From NCBI GenBank assembly GCA_965228855.1, contig CBDDIJ010000003.1, positions 704,001 to 768,000 of the forward strand: a DNA stretch of 64,000 nucleotides. Reading direction: 5' to 3'. The position numbers and the translations under genes are program-made. Below are positions 20,518 to 26,324 of this stretch, in pieces. Under the pieces are notes generated by a model, which had not been told where the DNA came from, did no database searches, and saw only the letters and a list, made by a program, of their open reading frames with translations. The first letter of the stretch is position 1. Every line of letters begins with the position of its first letter. Source of the DNA: Candidatus Obscuribacterales bacterium. Lineage in GTDB: Bacteria > Cyanobacteriota > Vampirovibrionia > Obscuribacterales > Obscuribacteraceae.

Positions 20518-20600
20518 AGGAGCAGACAGGAGTTGAACCTGTAACCCTTGCAGGCAGACGGTTTAGCAAACCGCTTCCTCGACCGTGTCGGACCTGCTCC
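20518..20600 (-). tRNA. tRNA-Ser(GCT)
   Basis: GGAGCAG/CTGCTCC acceptor, TTGCTAA loop, long V arm, GTTCAACTC. Confidence 0.85.
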
Positions 20601-20604
20601 AAAG

Positions 20605-20708
20605 TCGCATCGTCACCAGCCAATCACTAGTATTGAATCTGGTGCTTCTCAGGGAATGGTGACCATGCGGCGTCCGGTGAAGACGCCGCGGGCGAGCAGA
20701 CGATGCGA
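20605..20708 (-). ncRNA. Unassigned three-way-junction structured RNA
   Basis: 10-bp closing stem TCGCATCGTC/GACGATGCGA with internal GCGGCGTC/GACGCCGC and CCAG..CTGG hairpins. Confidence 0.5.
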
Positions 20709-20713
20709 GCTAC

Positions 20714-20822
20714 TCGCGGTCACCTATATGACGGAGTCTAAGCATTTCCAGCGCACAGGCGGAAGAGGTTTCCGCCTGACCGCGACAGGTTTGATACCAC
20801 AAATATAAATGCTGACTCGGTC
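20714..20822 (-). ncRNA. Unassigned pseudoknotted RNA
   Basis: Crossing helices 20807-20822/20730-20747 and 20779-20785/20714-20720, with nested hairpin 20756-20778. Confidence 0.5.
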
Positions 20823-20827
20823 TAAAA

Positions 20828-20902
20828 TGGCTGCACAGGCAGGGGTCGAACCTGCGACAAATCGGTTAACAGCCGATTGTTCTGCCGCTGAACTACTGTG
20901 CA
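20828..20902 (-). tRNA. tRNA-Asn(GTT)
   Basis: Cloverleaf, CTGTTAA loop, encoded CCA. Confidence 0.93.
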
Positions 20903-20905
20903 ATA

Positions 20906-20987
20906 AGGAAGCAGAGGGACTCGAACCCCCAAACCTTGACGGCCAACTGTTTTCAAGACAGCGTCCTCATCCAGCCGGGTTGCTTCC
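20906..20987 (-). tRNA. tRNA-Ser(TGA)
   Basis: GGAAGCA/TGCTTCC, CTTGAAA loop, V arm. Confidence 0.88.
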
Positions 20988-21046
20988 GAGTGATACCGAA
21001 AATGATTTCGGTATCGCCGATAGTGCTTGCGAGCACGCTCGACATA

Positions 21047-21119
21047 AGCCGTTGACAGGAGTTGAACCTGCAACCTACTGTTTACAAGACAGCAGCTCTA
21101 CCAATTGAGCCACAACGGC
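21047..21119 (-). tRNA. tRNA-Thr(TGT)
   Basis: Cloverleaf, CTTGTAA loop. Confidence 0.93.
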
Positions 21120-21120
21120 A

Positions 21121-21195
21121 TGGAACCGCATCCAGGATTCGAACCTGGGCGCAAAGGTTTAGAAAACCATCGCTCTTCCGCTGAGCTAATGCGGT
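21121..21195 (-). tRNA. tRNA-Arg(TCT)
   Basis: Cloverleaf, TTTCTAA loop, CCA. Confidence 0.9.
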
Positions 21196-21196
21196 A

Positions 21197-21290
21197 TGGT
21201 ACCAGTGGTAGGGCTCGAACCTACAACCTTGCGCTAATCGGGCGCTCAACCGAGTATAAATCGGCCGCTCTGCCATTGAGCTACACTGGT
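21197..21290 (-). tRNA. tRNA-Ile(TAT) with long variable arm
   Basis: ACCAGTG/CACTGGT, TTTATAC loop, GCGC..GCGC V arm, ACCA end. Confidence 0.85.
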
Positions 21291-21320
21291 TCGTTTGTGA
21301 ACTAATTTAAGTAGCGAAGA

Positions 21321-21392
21321 TGGAGGCAGTAGGAATCGAACCCACTTAATGCTGGTTAAAAGCCAGATGCATAGCCACTCTGCCATACCTCC
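21321..21392 (-). tRNA. tRNA-Lys(TTT)
   Basis: Cloverleaf, CTTTTAA loop. Confidence 0.88.
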
Positions 21393-21509
21393 TAGCGTTG
21401 ATTCTCATCGACGCTATGCGTTTTGAACTCATATTGGAACCTCCGATGATGGAGCATGACCGTTTTTCAACGACCATGCTCCGAGACGCAAACTTGTTTC
21501 CGAAGTAAT

Positions 21510-21584
21510 TGGGAGCACTGACGAGAATCGAACTCGCATTTGCGGAGTGAAAGTCCACCTTCCTAACCATTAGAAGACAGTGCC
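21510..21584 (-). tRNA. tRNA-Glu(TTC)
   Basis: Cloverleaf, CTTTCAC loop, CCA. Confidence 0.88.
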
Positions 21585-21615
21585 GTAGAACCGCTTTTGA
21601 AGCGGAGTTGTAATC

Positions 21616-21688
21616 AACCCTTGTCAGGACTTGAACCTGAACGCTACTGGATCGGAACCAGTTGCTCTTCCGTTTGAGCTACAAGGGC
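21616..21688 (-). tRNA. tRNA-Arg(CCG)
   Basis: Cloverleaf, TTCCGAT loop; body nearly identical to Arg(ACG) at 22568. Confidence 0.9.
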
Positions 21689-21689
21689 A

Positions 21690-21820
21690 TGGGCCGTACG
21701 AGTTGGAGATACGAGTTTTTTACATCCCCATGTAGCGGGGATGATTGGAGTTGAACCAATTAGATTTGTGTTGGAGACAAATGTTTTACCGTGTGTAAGT
21801 ATCTTCTGTTAGAGTACGGC
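21690..21820 (-). ncRNA. Scaffold RNA carrying a circularly permuted tRNA-Trp(CCA)-like domain
   Basis: GCCGTAC-TCTAACA...AACTC-GTACGGC scaffold enclosing an anticodon arm (CTCCAAC), a T arm, then the acceptor hairpin CATCCCC/GGGGATG. Confidence 0.75.
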
Positions 21821-21829
21821 GGAAATTTG

Positions 21830-21898
21830 TTCGTGCAAGTCGTTGATGCGAAGCTAAGCTCGTTCAAAGAGTGTATGCATCAACTGTCGGAGCACGAA
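21830..21898 (-). ncRNA. Minimal scaffold RNA
   Basis: TTCGTGC-TCCGACA-GTTGATGC...GCATCAAC-GACTT-GCACGAA. Confidence 0.7.
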
Positions 21899-21901
21899 AC
21901 A

Positions 21902-21988
21902 TGGTCGGCGGGGCACGGATTTGAACCTGCGAAGTCTTGAGACGCGTGGGTTACGGCCACGCTGCTTTGGCCACTTGCATACCCGCCG
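21902..21988 (-). tRNA. tRNA-Tyr(GTA) with C1-G72 pair
   Basis: CGGCGGG/CCCGCCG-ACCA, CCGTAAC loop, V arm, bulged T stem. Confidence 0.82.
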
Positions 21989-22061
21989 GTACTGTTTGCG
22001 TTCTGAATCGGGGCGATACCAGAGTGGTATCACCGTGATACCAGACTGGTGTCATCAATGA

Positions 22062-22132
22062 AGTCCCTTGCAGGAATTGCACCTGCATAAACTGATTTGC
22101 AGTCAGTCACCTTGCTATTCGGACAAAGGGAC
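22062..22132 (-). tRNA. tRNA-Cys(GCA)
   Basis: CTGCAAA loop, U73, atypical TGCAATT T loop. Confidence 0.85.
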
Positions 22133-22133
22133 G

Positions 22134-22207
22134 TGGAGCCTATCATCGGACTCGAACCGATACCCCTAGCATGGCTCGCTAGGATTCTGCCTTTATACTA
22201 GATAGGC
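22134..22207 (-). tRNA. tRNA-Gly(GCC), atypical anticodon loop
   Basis: GCCTATC/GATAGGC-TCCA; loop GAGCCAT (G32, A33). Confidence 0.8.
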
Positions 22208-22208
22208 G

Positions 22209-22283
22209 TGGTTGCCGCAGAAGGATTTGCACCTACACTTGCTCACTTATCGGGTGAGTACTCTGCTGTTAAGTTATGCGGCA
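22209..22283 (-). tRNA. tRNA-Ile(GAT), atypical
   Basis: CCGATAA loop (C33), TGCAAAT T loop, ACCA end. Confidence 0.8.
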
Positions 22284-22284
22284 C

Positions 22285-22369
22285 TGGTGGAGGCAGTAGG
22301 AATCGAACCCACGTTGGTTTTGAAACCTCTGGTTAAGAGCCAGGTGCATAGCCATTCTGCCATGCCTCC
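22285..22369 (-). tRNA. tRNA-Lys(CTT) with variable arm
   Basis: CTCTTAA loop; GGTTTCAAAACC V hairpin; paralog of Lys(TTT). Confidence 0.88.
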
Positions 22370-22371
22370 AG

Positions 22372-22522
22372 GACGAGCGACATCGAGAACGGTTTCATGT
22401 TGCACATAGAAACCTCATCGTGCAGTTAGTCAGCTCGTTTCTGTTCTTGCACCACAGATGGTTTCGTTCATAAGACAGTCCCTTAGAACCGTTTTTTGCG
22501 AACCACATCTGGTGCTCGATGT
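22372..22522 (-). ncRNA. Unassigned multi-stem, possibly pseudoknotted RNA
   Basis: ACATCGAG/CTCGATGT closing stem, long hairpin 22449-22515, hairpin 22391-22414, crossing helix 22433-22439/22372-22378. Confidence 0.5.
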
Positions 22523-22567
22523 TTTAGACGTCACCCGGCGCCTGATAGCGCCTGCGGTGCTCTTAAT

Positions 22568-22642
22568 TGGAACCCTTGTCAGGATTCGAACCTGAAGCCT
22601 ACTGGTTCGTAGCCAGTTGCTCTTCCTTTAAGCTACAAGGGC
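22568..22642 (-). tRNA. tRNA-Arg(ACG)
   Basis: Cloverleaf, CTACGAA loop, CCA. Confidence 0.92.
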
Positions 22643-22682
22643 GCATGCCTGCTTATGGTTATGACACCGCAAGTAGGCGGTC

Positions 22683-22900
22683 AACCGTGCAAGTTGAAGT
22701 TACGGATCATCGCGTTTTACCGTTGCTCGAAATCTAGCCCAGTCCGCACTTACGCGTTGTTTAAATGATGGCTGCTTAAAGCCTACATCCTGGGTTTCTG
22801 ACGACTCCTCACAATCTCATTGCCATTTGAAACGACGGTTGGCTTAGCCAACTAGCCTCCTCTCGTACTGCTTGTATGTATCTTGGGTTGGGGCACGGTC
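22683..22900 (-). ncRNA. Scaffold RNA carrying 23S rRNA sarcin-ricin loop and L11/GTPase-centre mimics
   Basis: AGTACGAGAGGA at 22869-22858; CCCAGGATGTAGGCTTTAAGCAGCCATCATTTAAACAACGCGTAAGTGCGGACTGGG at 22794-22738; closed by GACCGTGC/GCACGGTT. Confidence 0.85.
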
Positions 22901-22903
22901 GCT

Positions 22904-22973
22904 TGCTCACCATCGGAATCGAACCGATTTCTCCATCCGGCGAGATGGATTTCTGCCATTGAATTAGGCGAGC
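22904..22973 (-). tRNA. Degenerate tRNA (Gly-like body, 8-nt anticodon loop CTCGCCGG)
   Basis: Acceptor GCTCGCC/GGTGAGC, canonical T arm, irregular D and anticodon arms. Confidence 0.6.
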
Positions 22974-22977
22974 ACAT

Positions 22978-23110
22978 AAACCGTACGAGTCGCGCTTGCA
23001 GGTGGGGCTTTACATTTCGCAGCCGTGAATTCCAGTTCCGGCAAGACACCCACAGTTACGTTTGTTTATTTGTTTGTGGATTGTAAGCAATCGCTGTTGG
23101 AGTACGGTTT
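22978..23110 (-). ncRNA. Scaffold RNA with A/C-rich single strand and small junction domain
   Basis: AAACCGTAC-TCCAACA...GACTC-GTACGGTTT; internal CACAAACAAATAAACAAAC and GTGGG/CCCAC domain. Confidence 0.72.
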
Positions 23111-23114
23111 TATA

Positions 23115-23185
23115 TTGCCGCAGCAGGTCTTGCACCTGCACGTGTCGGTTTATTCAACAAACACTCTGCGTTGATTTACACGGCA
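23115..23185 (-). tRNA. Degenerate tRNA-Ile(AAT)-like
   Basis: TGCCGTG/TGCGGCA acceptor like Ile(GAT), mismatched anticodon stem, loop TGAATAA, TGCAAGA T loop. Confidence 0.55.
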
Positions 23186-23186
23186 T

Positions 23187-23261
23187 TGGTACCCGATGAA
23201 GGACTTGAACCTTCAACCCGCTCTTTGTAAGAGAGACGCTCTACCATTGAGCTAACCGGGT
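23187..23261 (-). tRNA. tRNA-Val(TAC)
   Basis: Cloverleaf, CTTACAA loop, ACCA end. Confidence 0.92.
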
Positions 23262-23262
23262 A

Positions 23263-23339
23263 TGGTGCTTAGGGTCGGGGTCGAACCAACAACGCGCAGG
23301 GCTTCAACCTGCCGCTCTACCACTTGGAGCTACCTAAGC
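23263..23339 (-). tRNA. tRNA-Phe(GAA)
   Basis: Cloverleaf, TTGAAGC loop, ACCA end. Confidence 0.92.
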
Positions 23340-23340
23340 A

Positions 23341-23417
23341 TGGTGCTTCTGGAAGGAGTCGAACCTTCAGACTTCTGTTTTTGAAACAGATGCATGTACC
23401 GATTCTGCTACAGAAGC
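23341..23417 (-). tRNA. tRNA-Leu(CAA), short variable loop
   Basis: TTCAAAA loop, A73, variable region only AGTCT. Confidence 0.88.
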
Positions 23418-23420
23418 ATG

Positions 23421-23540
23421 TGGCCGTACGAGTCGAGGTGCAGTGTAGTTCACGGAGGAATCGAACCTCCAACTTCTGATTAATAGTCAGATACTCTTAC
23501 CGTTTGAGTTAGTGTGTATGCACGTCTGTGTGAGTACGGC
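23421..23540 (-). ncRNA. Scaffold RNA carrying a tRNA-Asn(ATT)-like D/anticodon/T core
   Basis: GCCGTAC-TCACACA-GACGTGCA...TGCACCTC-GACTC-GTACGGC enclosing perfect D, anticodon (CTATTAA) and T arms. Confidence 0.78.
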
Positions 23541-23547
23541 GCAGTTA

Positions 23548-23620
23548 TGGAGACGATCGGAGTTGAACCGACAACCTTCTCGTTGCAGGCGAGGTGCTCT
23601 ACCAGTTGAGCTAAGTCCCC
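23548..23620 (-). tRNA. tRNA-Ala(TGC)
   Basis: G3-U70 pair, CCTGCAA loop (C33). Confidence 0.9.
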
Positions 23621-23624
23621 AGGT

Positions 23625-23728
23625 GGAGCCGATCTTGGCGTTTCGAGATTGCGATGAAGACCCTCCGAGTTTGCGCCGGCAATGCGCTCGATCTTCGCAG
23701 AGAAAAAATCGTCGAAACAATCGGCTCC
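23625..23728 (-). ncRNA. Unassigned rod-shaped RNA with pyrimidine-rich internal loop
   Basis: GGAGCCGAT/ATCGGCTCC, GTTTCGA/TCGAAAC, TTTTTTCTC bulge, apical hairpin. Confidence 0.5.
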
Positions 23729-23734
23729 TGGTAC

Positions 23735-23810
23735 TGGTCGCAGAGACCGGATTCGAACCGGTAATTTACAGGTTATGAGCCTGCCGTGTTAACCGTTACA
23801 CTACTCTGCT
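23735..23810 (-). tRNA. tRNA-Met(CAT) with A1xG72 mismatch
   Basis: CTCATAA loop, ACCA end; Met versus fMet versus Ile2 not resolved. Confidence 0.88.
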
Positions 23811-23823
23811 AAATTTGAACATT

Positions 23824-23897
23824 TGCTTCTGGAAGGATTCGAACCTTCAGACCTCCGGGTTTAAGTCGGATGCATGTGCCGATTCTGCTACAGAAGC
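23824..23897 (-). tRNA. tRNA-Leu(TAA), short variable loop
   Basis: CTTAAAC loop; paralog of Leu(CAA). Confidence 0.88.
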
Positions 23898-23898
23898 G

Positions 23899-23973
23899 TG
23901 GCGCATCCCCTAGGATTTGAACCCAGATCGAACGAGTTTGGAGCTCGTCATGTTGCCGTTACACCAGGGATAC
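23899..23973 (-). tRNA. tRNA-Trp(CCA)
   Basis: Cloverleaf, CTCCAAA loop, GCCA end. Confidence 0.92.
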
Positions 23974-23976
23974 GGG

Positions 23977-24136
23977 TTGAGTGAGTTAAGCACGAGCCTT
24001 CGGTCTGGGTTATGTGAACTGCAACTGAATCTGATTTTCAGCTGCTGGAACCATTTGCTATCACGATTCCGTCGGCTCCGTGTTGGGTCACGACGCCTGC
24101 TCGATCACGAACCAAAACTCGTGCTCAACCACTCGA
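23977..24136 (-). ncRNA. Unassigned ~160-nt structured RNA at the head of the array
   Basis: Long closing helix GAGT-GGTTGAGCACGAG / CTCGTGCTTAACT-C-ACTC with internal hairpins. Confidence 0.5.
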
Positions 24137-24273
24137 ATGTTTTTTTGCGGATTCAATTTTCAGTGTGCGATTCGTCGAGGAGTCACGCAAGAGCGCAGAG
24201 AAACAGGCCTGTTCACTACTGCGAAGGCGCTTCAAGACTATTTTTTTGTTCGCGAAAATCCAGAACTAATAAC

Positions 24274-24303
24274 AAAAAAGCCTGGGCTTTTCGACCCAGG
24301 CTT
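24274..24303 (-). terminator. Intrinsic terminator upstream of the tRNA array (attenuator)
   Basis: AAGCCTGGG-TCGAAAAG-CCCAGGC followed by TTTTTT on the minus strand. Confidence 0.8.
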
Positions 24304-24325
24304 GCGAATGAGAAACGACTCTACG

Positions 24326-24454
24326 TCAGATCACACCTGGGCTATATTTATTCGTCGCGCCTGCTGTCCACAGTTCGCGACCGAGTATCTCGGCCGGTTT
24401 CCCGACGGACATGCGATTCTCGCAACTTAAATGTCTATATGATCTAAACGACAT
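24326..24454 (-). CDS. Putative 42-aa leader peptide MSFRSYRHLSCENRMSVGKPAEILGRELWTAGATNKYSPGVI
   Basis: GGAG SD 9 nt upstream; last codons contain the antiterminator strand GCCCAGG; stop 22 nt before the terminator. Confidence 0.6.
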   Translation of the reverse strand: MSFRSYRHLSCENRMSVGKPAEILGRELWTAGATNKYSPGVI

Positions 24455-24521
24455 TTCGTGTTTCTCCATTCGCCGCCGAATTCGATACTTAATCGAATCG
24501 ATTTTTCGGTCGACACTAACA

Positions 24522-24530
24522 ATCCTACCA
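24522..24530 (-). promoter_or_regulatory. Possible extended -10 promoter (TGGTAGGAT) of the array
   Basis: TGnTAnnnT match about 70 nt upstream of the leader ORF; -35 weak. Confidence 0.35.
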
Positions 24531-24854
24531 TGCACCTTCCGAAATTACACGGGGAAGTTTCAACTTTTAATCTTTGATTCGCGCTTACCATGCGGTTTTC
24601 CGCATATAAGAGTAAAAGAGTAATAAATAAACATGGAGAAGATGAAGATGTGGTGCGTTCTTAACGCTCACCAGATCCTCGGTCATGATTAAGTGCTTGT
24701 AGCACAGTCTCGTGTTTAGGTAATCAAAACATGTAATCGCTGAGCTTCTATCATGAACTTTAGAGGCCTTACTTTAATCAAAAGCCTATAGATCAATAGA
24801 TCCACATTTCAAGCTATTGAGATAACATAGAAGAAGGTAAATATTGGAGACGCT

Positions 24855-25124
24855 ATGTCAAAGGTTGTCTATTCTGATCGCCATCTGACCGACAACGGCT
24901 GGGTAACGGGGACCGAGCGTTGGGATGACGGAACACTTAAACTGGTAAATCCGCCATCCGACACAGCTATGACTGTTCGCTACTCTGTGCCCATGCATAG
25001 GCCTCCATACATAACGACCCAGTGGAAGACGGATCGCGACGAGTATCTGCAGGAACTCGTTCAGAAGTTTGGTGAATTGCCAAACGACCTGCAGATCGTT
25101 GAGAACACTGCGGGCGATAATTAA
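24855..25124 (+). CDS. Hypothetical protein
   Basis: GGAG SD, 89-aa ORF. Confidence 0.7.
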   Translation: MSKVVYSDRHLTDNGWVTGTERWDDGTLKLVNPPSDTAMTVRYSVPMHRPPYITTQWKTDRDEYLQELVQKFGELPNDLQIVENTAGDN

Positions 25125-25406
25125 CTGCGAAGCGGCGCTCGATTTTTCAATTAGTCGATAAATATCTGAAGATCATGTAGATGAGATCTCAGAGGGACTC
25201 TGAGATTTGAGCCGCGGTTTTTTTTGGTTTTCAGTGCCACTATATGTGGTGTTTGGCCTTTCGGAAGCCTGTATGGAACGACGCTAAAATTTGCAGATCG
25301 ACGCAAGCACTTGAGGTGGTTTGTCAACGAGTGAGCGTCGGAATTTGTGAAAACCGTCGCTCTGGGATTGACAGGGCGGGTCTAGAATCGATTTGTCTAA
25401 CGGTCG

Positions 25407-26324
25407 TCAAATGGGTGGACCAGAGGCTCCATATTTCGATAGTTCTTCGAGCAGGTTTCTGACCGAATATTGTGGGACATATCCGATACTGCTGGTGGTG
25501 CGTGAGATGTCCAGCCTCCTAGGACAGTGATGAAGTGGAAGATCGTGTTTTAGAGCCATCTCGTAGTATTCTGGAAAGTGCAATTTAAATGTGGTGCCTG
25601 GACCTTCTCGATCCCAGTTTAAGAACTCATCTTTTGAGTACTCATAGGCACCATCTACGGTGAGGATCAAATTTTCGCATACGTCGCGTTCCGCATCTTC
25701 ACTTTCCTCATCGCTACGTGTCGCATCTCCGTCGAGTCTCCTGGCCAGATAGTCGATACTTCTTTCTACTGATTGCGCAACATCGTTGATATGCACCGCT
25801 CCTTTCCAAAACCATTTTGCCCATTCTACGTAGTTGCTGTAAACCGCCCGGTTCCAGTGCGGAATGAACGCTCTTGGACGCAGTGTTATCGTCTTCAACT
25901 TGTGATGCGAAGCGTAAAATGAAGCCAGCTGTTCTGAAATAATTTTGCTGTTCCCATATACTGTATCGGGTTCATCGATACTGGTGCTCGAGATGAAAAT
26001 CACGCTGCCAACGCCGGCACGGACAGATGCCTCGAAAACTTCGAAAGTTCCCCTGATGTTCAGGTCGAAGAATTCGTAAGCATCCCTCTGCTTCTTAAAC
26101 TCATGAATGCCATGCCAAGCCGCGATGTGAACGACTACATCGCAGTTTGAAAACCACGTTGGAAGTTGTGGTCGATCCAAGACCGAGCCGCGGACGAATT
26201 CTCCGGGCGAGTCATGCGGCGGGTCTGCAACATCGAGAAGAACCGCTTCATCACCCCGATTCGTCAATCTTCTCGCCAGAACTTTGCCCAGATCACCACA
26301 ACCACCTGTCAGCAAAACGCGCAT
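25407..26324 (-). CDS. NAD-dependent epimerase/dehydratase
   Basis: TGGCGDLG, HIAA, YxxxK (YGNSK). Confidence 0.9.
   Translation of the reverse strand: MRVLLTGGCGDLGKVLARRLTNRGDEAVLLDVADPPHDSPGEFVRGSVLDRPQLPTWFSNCDVVVHIAAWHGIHEFKKQRDAYEFFDLNIRGTFEVFEASVRAGVGSVIFISSTSIDEPDTVYGNSKIISEQLASFYASHHKLKTITLRPRAFIPHWNRAVYSNYVEWAKWFWKGAVHINDVAQSVERSIDYLARRLDGDATRSDEESEDAERDVCENLILTVDGAYEYSKDEFLNWDREGPGTTFKLHFPEYYEMALKHDLPLHHCPRRLDISRTTSSIGYVPQYSVRNLLEELSKYGASGPPI

Follow-up and report, generated by a model that had tools for sequence, protein, structure and literature searches.

A leader ORF and terminator conserved ahead of tRNA arrays in Obscuribacterales form a probable ribosome-mediated attenuator whose codons sample the array tRNAs

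In the trpL, hisL and pheL/pheM attenuators, a leader peptide with a run of one or two control codons works through protector, antiterminator and terminator helices, and an untranslated leader leads to termination. For some tRNA genes of Firmicutes, regulation by T-boxes has been predicted, and attenuation may therefore have precedent for tRNA genes as such. According to the available part of a recent preprint, the upstream open reading frame (uORF) of whiB7/wblC has a broad amino-acid content (in M. smegmatis all amino acids but Cys), stalling on it causes read-through, and it answers many shortages as well as antibiotics (bioRxiv 10.1101/2023.06.02.543512). Long tRNA arrays are exemplified by the Anabaena trn array, which is extra to the housekeeping set and, in the accessible sections of two papers, is induced by translational stress via promoter repeats and the repressor TrcR (PMC8421152, PMC10272220). 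The words “leader” and “terminator” are absent from those sections. The first of these papers, in the same sections, reports a response to diverse ribosome inhibitors and calls the mechanisms of differential tRNA gene regulation largely unknown (PMC8421152), and an array survey, in its accessible text, terms tRNA array function unknown (PMC12803027). We found no leader-peptide attenuator for tRNA genes in the literature searched, which comprised few subscription papers and took in the accessible text of the array surveys PMC4758250 and PMC12803027.

We analyzed a 64,000-nucleotide stretch of DNA (G000:C3:704001-768000; hereafter the window) from a genome of 8.2 Mb that is 95% complete. The window carries a tRNA L-array that is extra to a scattered housekeeping tRNA set elsewhere in the genome, and the array is preceded by a leader with its own promoter element, ORF and terminator (Table 1). 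Records with the same element are titled Obscuribacterales or Melainabacteria, which are non-photosynthetic relatives of cyanobacteria. The locus resembles whiB7/wblC in combining a uORF, an antiterminator and an intrinsic terminator with a broad, sequence-variable peptide. It differs in its output, which for whiB7 is a transcription factor and here is a non-coding tRNA array with a boxA, and the two are not expected to be homologous. In the available part of the whiB7 preprint, loss of the start codon raises expression and the only uORF bias is toward Ala, whereas termination is predicted in the window's genus and leader content follows the downstream tRNAs. Membership in the whiB7/wblC type by target was rejected, as a tRNA array and not a whiB7-like gene lies downstream. 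The locus is like trp-type attenuators in having a protector helix and predicted termination without leader translation, and unlike them in offering one or a few codons for each of 8–20 amino acids and in preceding tRNA genes rather than genes for enzymes or synthetases. A classical single-amino-acid attenuator was likewise rejected: there is no run of control codons in 24 leader peptides, and the downstream genes are tRNAs.

Table 1. Coordinates of features at the two tRNA loci (window positions unless a contig is given)
Feature	Position	Strand	Remarks
Palindrome, possible transcription-factor site	24590..24605	.	Whole or half kept in 8 aligned genomes; putative role
Extended -10 promoter element	24522..24532	-	Predicted transcription start near 24516-24517
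5' hairpin	24476..24509	-	From folds and alignment; length and sequence vary among homologues
SD and start region, strand A of protector helix	24440..24473	-	SD GGAG at 24467-24464
Leader ORF, 42 codons	24326..24454	-	ATG at 24454, TGA ending 24326
Antiterminator strand GCCCAGG	24336..24342	-	Within last five codons; pairs terminator 5' arm
Spacer	24304..24335	-	From folds; extends antiterminator hairpin or pairs SD/start strand
Intrinsic terminator, 10-bp stem and U-rich tail	24272..24303	-	Hairpin 24303-24278; -16.7 kcal/mol
boxA-like word	24152..24168	-	Type preceding 16S rRNA, 23S rRNA and tmRNA in the family
tRNA L-array, 24 tRNA or tRNA-like genes	20518..23973	-	No Asp, Gln, His or Pro tRNAs
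23S rRNA-like segment inside array	22717..22816	-	Model positions 1071-1170; Rfam match above gathering score
Second tRNA cluster (Asp, His, Pro, Leu-UAG, Gln, Gln)	L126:1263-2154	-	Serves four amino acids absent from window array
Leader of second cluster, 46 codons, own promoter	L126:2409-2549 = G000:C3 about 1530900-1531050	-	

The Anabaena trn operon is also a long tRNA array beyond the housekeeping set. Cyanobacterial trn operons carry repressor-binding repeats over the -10 element, whereas control here appears to lie in the transcript. Tandem repeats of the TrcR type over the -10 and start were searched by eye in an alignment of 8 genomes and none were seen, against four copies in Nostoc HK-01; a single repeat-like 8-mer at the window's -10 can also be explained as the extended -10 itself. 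The Nostoc HK-01 array, the one inspected, has the repeats and the same boxA-like word ahead of its first tRNA, which begins ~75 nt after the promoter and leaves no room for a leader. If the present interpretation is right, sister lineages have met one problem with two solutions, a repressor in cyanobacteria and an attenuator here. The mechanism is akin to the whiB7 and trp attenuators; the distinctive combination, not found in the literature searched, is a non-coding output with leader codons that follow the tRNA content of the array.

The preliminary description of this DNA had reported a 42-codon ORF with an SD whose stop ends 22 nt ahead of a strong terminator, and in its final codons a GCCCAGG word identical to the terminator 3' arm. 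These points are accurate, and a U-rich tail follows the hairpin. Its tally of the peptide (18 of 20 amino acids, with Asp and Gln missing; two AGA codons, one TTA and one ATA) is exact in content, but the diversity is not unusual by itself: 18 distinct amino acids in 42 codons have P 0.16–0.18 in proteome windows and 0.37 in nucleotide shuffles. Diversity was therefore discarded as a signal for the window and for 13 leaders of g54 and g22 (P 0.16–0.97). Codons among the ten rarest of the genome show a mild excess in the window leader (6 of 41 against 2.7–3.4 expected). That the rare codons are ones without a housekeeping tRNA was excluded, as Arg-UCU and Leu-UAA tRNAs exist outside the array. 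The hairpin of the antiterminator strand with the terminator 5' arm is computed at -19 to -20 kcal/mol. The leader peptide has no Pfam family and the leader no Rfam family; region 24316-25450 has no Rfam match at E≤10, neither to a T-box or metabolite riboswitch nor to a known sRNA, and the sole Rfam signal is a weak terminator-shaped match at 24272-24315 (E 5.3). A divergent 89-aa ORF (24855-25124, +), present as a single copy and without a Pfam match, is kept beside the leader in genus relatives.

We interpret the conserved leader ORF, antiterminator and terminator, with good confidence, as a transcription attenuator that acts through the ribosome and has leader codons sampling the array tRNAs. 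A DNA search found the leader region in genus relatives. In the alignment of 8 genomes the extended -10, SD, start, antiterminator strand, terminator and downstream boxA-like word are conserved, the 5' hairpin is variable, and indels in the leader ORF keep the frame. We then searched 104 family genomes with a pattern made of the antiterminator strand and the terminator only, excluding the ORF. The pattern matched 26 genomes (reversed control, 0), and 24 of the matches lie upstream of tRNA arrays. Of the remaining two, one is a repeat within a gene, and the other, in G126, is an aromatic amino-acid leader that precedes a DAHP synthase gene. Every one of the 24 array leaders has an SD-led ORF of at least 33 codons (33–43) with its stop in the antiterminator strand, 9–13 nt from where that strand begins, against 0.13–0.41 expected from shuffles; the list of SD words was fixed after seeing the data, and the same list was applied to the shuffles. 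With metagenome leaders included, the stop falls 8–13 nt into the antiterminator strand despite ORF lengths of 33–47 codons and the use of all three phases. Three of the 24 leaders use another frame relative to that strand and two metagenome leaders the third, with the stop shifted so as to hold its place. Two further arrays, reached through boxA and independently of the pattern, have the same leader. Conservation upstream of homologous arrays, the check proposed in the preliminary description, was thus found at 26 arrays (24 by pattern and two by boxA), although the counted genomes are kin and stand for about 7–9 lineages.

Outside these genomes, 23 metagenome matches comprise 14 before tRNAs, one leader at a contig end and 8 that are unrelated. 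Among GTDB genomes, 23 of 33 matches precede tRNA arrays and the other 10 are without tRNAs. The titles of the 23 array matches read Obscuribacterales, Melainabacteria or Cyanobacteria bacterium in 21 cases and only “bacterium” in one; the last is a Chloroflexota contig that is near-identical to G012 and probably misbinned. Viral contigs gave no pattern match, and plasmids showed single-tRNA similarity only. The pattern is strict: it missed G010 and G068, and diverged leaders elsewhere could escape it. The U tail of the terminator is weaker in some homologues. The pattern also matched a leader before rplJ in Dehalococcoidia-type contigs (L052, L131), probably an unrelated ribosomal L10 leader. 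In G126 (L049:1558-1623 and upstream), two tandem ORFs rich in Trp, Tyr and Phe, with hairpins, precede the DAHP synthase gene. The second of these leaders shares arm sequences with the tRNA-array terminator, and the occurrence of the same terminator and antiterminator words there indicates that the lineage uses such switches.

Promoter words and RNA contigs bear on how the leader and array are transcribed. In each of the 26 leaders an extended -10 word precedes the antiterminator strand by 110–240 nt. The spacers from the terminator to the first tRNA (5.6 kb in total) contain a sigma-70-like word or a -35/-10 pair in 0 of 26 cases; the words searched for had been taken from the upstream elements themselves, and non-sigma-70 promoters would escape the scan. 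The RNA data consist of contigs from 4 of 18 listed runs, all metatranscriptomes and from different studies. Each contains one contig over the leader (24337-24506, 24338-24507, 24337-24506 and 24269-24456), and contigs from 3 studies start at 24506-24507. No RNA contig in the four covers 23915-24217 or 24521-25400, and none spans the leader and downstream genes; processed spacers and tRNAs are poorly recovered in such data anyway, and we did not count the missing cover across most of the array as evidence. The contigs hint, weakly, at transcription of the leader into a short RNA ending at or before the terminator. Those of the three studies are 170 nt each and end at 24337-24338, inside the antiterminator strand and with no loose end; this shared end may reflect a pause, cleavage, a reverse-transcription block or an assembly break.

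These data might also suit a stand-alone leader gene, specifying a small RNA or a small protein and closed by its own terminator, with array transcription starting at a different promoter or resulting from leaky or protein-driven read-through. On its own the leader folds well (z -5.4), RNA contigs represent this part of the locus, the conserved palindrome ~80 nt upstream of its promoter hints at protein control, and the promoter scans are blind to non-sigma-70 promoters. We nevertheless regard a stand-alone gene as very unlikely, since the peptide is unconserved (G015 and L146 are separated by 10 replacement and 4 silent codon changes), the stop keeps its place relative to the antiterminator strand whichever frame is used, the leader has no Rfam family and the spacers lack promoter-like words throughout.

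We assessed the predicted switch by folding transcripts that extend to the terminator 5' arm. The antiterminator was absent in 24 of 24 leaders when a ribosome occupied the stop codon, and present in 22 of 24 when one occupied the start codon. As the preliminary description had proposed, the antiterminator and terminator are mutually exclusive in these folds, and a ribosome at the stop is predicted to mask the antiterminator strand and cause termination. Pattern and ORF occur together before the array in all 24 cases. When RNA 5' of the ribosome was omitted, the window antiterminator formed at every sampled position until ~9 codons from the end, and in all 24 leaders it formed at most stall positions. 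When pairing across the ribosome was allowed, its probability in the window was 1.0 at the start codon and 0.0 at codons 5, 12 and 20, a loss caused by a helix between the SD/start strand and the spacer (-24.6 kcal/mol, p 0.003). Antitermination from a stall anywhere, as in whiB7-like schemes, is thus seen in the 3'-only fold, and in the whole-leader fold of the window at the start codon only; sensing in the middle of the ORF would need a queued ribosome or steric exclusion.

The earlier expectation that absent translation gives read-through is not supported for the window leader. When ribosome-free, this leader has an antiterminator probability of 0.00 through the SD-spacer helix, and termination is predicted in 6 of 7 members of the window's genus. 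The expectation holds in 16 of 24 leaders overall, where the ribosome-free antiterminator forms, among them one of the 7 of the window's genus. The SD-spacer helix was rejected as a universal element; it is significant in 11 of 32 leaders and in no leader of g54, g22 or g4. The addition of the window spacer to the antiterminator is not significant (p 0.35), and 11 of 32 leaders reach p≤0.05. On the full transcript at equilibrium the terminator is present in nearly all states (mean P 0.96–0.99), and the decision must therefore be kinetic and co-transcriptional. Some covariation is seen in the inner antiterminator helices, with 15 two-sided changes where shuffles give 7.7; the core antiterminator pairs are invariant by design of the search. 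Under the attenuator interpretation, a ribosome on the last 8–9 codons would mask the antiterminator strand, the terminator would form and only a leader RNA of ~240 nt would be made. A ribosome slowed or stalled earlier would leave the antiterminator free and the SD-spacer helix blocked, and the polymerase would read through. With no ribosome, the SD-spacer helix would win in the window's genus and termination is predicted.

We compared the composition of each leader with the tRNA set of its array. Each of the 16 amino acids that the window array serves is present in its leader peptide (P 0.06 in shuffles, 0.02 in the proteome). In 23 of a set of 25 arrays, no amino acid served is missing from the leader, against 3.2 expected from composition-preserving shuffles. 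In this comparison mis-called Ala and Val anticodons were reassigned by rule and 16 doubtful tRNA-like calls were dropped; the set includes the truncated L145 and the possibly truncated L150 and excludes metagenome duplicates. Seven partial arrays are listed apart, and 6 of them are covered by their leaders. The leaders of G067 and L135 lack Trp though their arrays have it, and the same applies to G029. The ATA codon is present wherever the array includes a tRNA-Ile(UAU) (9 of 9 leaders) and missing wherever it does not (0 of 12); loci added later gave two agreeing cases and one exception, and in L130 the leader has ATA and the matching tRNA is absent. For AGA the counts are 10 of 11 leaders with the matching array tRNA against 2 of 10 without. 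The metagenome loci were collected after the idea of matching had been formed. At the codon level the match is significant in most g54 leaders, in G010 and in L130 and is mixed in the window's genus; it is not significant for the window (p 0.24–0.27) or for genus g50 (0.4–0.6).

Leaders are nearly complete where the array contains Asp and Pro tRNAs: they encode 20 of 20 amino acids in 35, 35, 43 and 47 codons and 19 in 33 and 43 codons (P 0.002–0.08 for the six). Of 34 residues, 10 differ between the G015 and L146 peptides, with 4 silent changes, and both contain 20 of 20 amino acids (chance ~0.06), a pattern that fits selection on composition and not on sequence. The informative signal is the match to the array and not amino-acid diversity. 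The proposal of a general sensor in the preliminary description needs refining, in that the amino acids of each leader follow the tRNA set of the array behind it. Its proposal of a protein-free sensor has to be weighed against the conserved palindrome upstream of the promoter and the boxA-like site downstream, where proteins may act.

A second tRNA cluster in the same genome allowed an internal comparison. Upstream of the second cluster there is a single SD-led ORF of 28–70 codons within 600 nt. The leader in G000 is unrelated in sequence to the main leader, has no Pfam match and has homologues in more than 20 relatives. Asp, His, Pro, Leu and Gln make up 26 of its 45 residues (58%), against 26% of the proteome (p 6e-6) and 6 of 41 residues of the main leader. 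In 16 of 16 genomes with both leaders scored, the amino acids of the second cluster form 47–59% of its own leader and 3–16% of the main leader (Fisher p ~0.001 or less each; G010 had no anchor, and Pro was assumed where no Tyr tRNA was called). Clusters of this second type that carry Tyr, Glu or Asn tRNAs have leaders containing the corresponding residues, and those led by Glu have 3–8 Glu per leader. In three Glu-led loci (L175, L178 and L179, from G091, G092 and G094), the leader stop lies 30–40 nt before tRNA-Glu, no terminator was found between the ORF and the tRNA, and a U-rich run directly follows the tRNA.

One competing account of the composition data, in line with the preliminary description, is a generic stall sensor for any translation defect, such as antibiotics or starvation, with the match a by-product of ancestry, base composition or RNA structure. 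Availability of the antiterminator from almost any stall position in the 3'-only folds suits such a sensor, as does the small number of independent lineages. The responses of the whiB7 uORF to many shortages and antibiotics (bioRxiv 10.1101/2023.06.02.543512, available part) and of the Anabaena array to diverse ribosome inhibitors (PMC8421152, accessible sections) point the same way. By-product explanations sit poorly with the coverage of 23 of 25 arrays against the shuffled expectation, with a non-homologous second leader that matches its own cluster in the same genomes and with the Glu content of Glu-led clusters, and we consider a purely generic sensor unlikely. The generic and matched readings overlap, in that antibiotics would probably induce the array under both.

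On balance we lean, by somewhat more than an even chance, toward matched leader peptides that audit the tRNA pool. Each backup cluster would be headed by an ORF that spells its amino acids together with several rare codons (in the fullest case 20 of 20 amino acids in 35 codons). Were any covered tRNA lost to toxin cleavage, phage attack or modification failure, the ribosome would stall, the terminator would open, rRNA-type antitermination would be engaged and exactly those tRNAs would be restored. As the array tRNAs read the leader codons, induction would shut itself off once those tRNAs were restored. If true, this is a self-referential feedback loop in which decoding speed sets tRNA gene expression. 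A leader that lists the codons served by its array would give a testable readout of array purpose, with the inducing shortages readable from the peptide, and would offer a compact biosensor for tRNA depletion.

Folding of the second leader raises the opposite polarity. In 4 of 4 genomes folded, a long hairpin ending in a U run is present when the ribosome is stalled and absent when it has reached the stop codon, and no terminator was evident in second-type leaders of other relatives. The second leader thus favors matching and not polarity, and we cannot reconcile the predicted behavior of its hairpin with a supply switch. Such folds would agree with inverse or stability control, where translation of a matched leader is needed for expression or processing and tRNAs are made only when amino acids are available; the predicted termination without translation in the window's genus would agree as well. 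For the main leader, the antiterminator is removed by a ribosome at the stop in 24 of 24 cases, which implies termination upon completed translation, and inverse control appears highly improbable.

A conserved word follows the terminator. It occurs in 25 of 26 spacers between terminator and tRNA (the missing case has an N gap), 90–280 nt behind the conditional terminator, and the same word precedes 16S, 23S and tmRNA genes in the family. In rRNA operons boxA serves antitermination. We take the word to be boxA and presume a link to NusB/NusE. NusB-family matches are present in G000. After read-through, the polymerase would take on rRNA-type antitermination factors at boxA and continue through the 3.5-kb array. 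A search of the 95%-complete G000 genome for a Rho RNA-binding domain found none, and the role of boxA may therefore be in folding or processing and not in protection from Rho. A boxA scan with one mismatch was too loose for counting arrays (102 of 104 genomes); inspection of 20 of its matches yielded 2 arrays, and among the matches listed most are tmRNA leaders. The word precedes the tmRNA gene in L083-L091 and L098-L101 and at G000:C2:2199514, and the 16S and 23S genes are unlinked in G000.

The array itself contains unusual elements. Its 23S rRNA-like segment, presumably the L11/GTPase-associated region of 23S rRNA, is possibly a decoy. One RNA contig covers it, G004 has a similar match, and such a piece lies at L106:5072-5192 (model positions ~1063-1185). 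A strict motif search found the piece in G000 and G007 only and missed the known G004 case, making that search uninformative. Degenerate tRNA-like genes at 23451-23514, 22903-22974 and 21744-21801 (-) have an anticodon loop that varies freely among genomes. The tRNA at 21197-21290 is 94 nt long and has a UAU anticodon, which is uncommon in bacteria.
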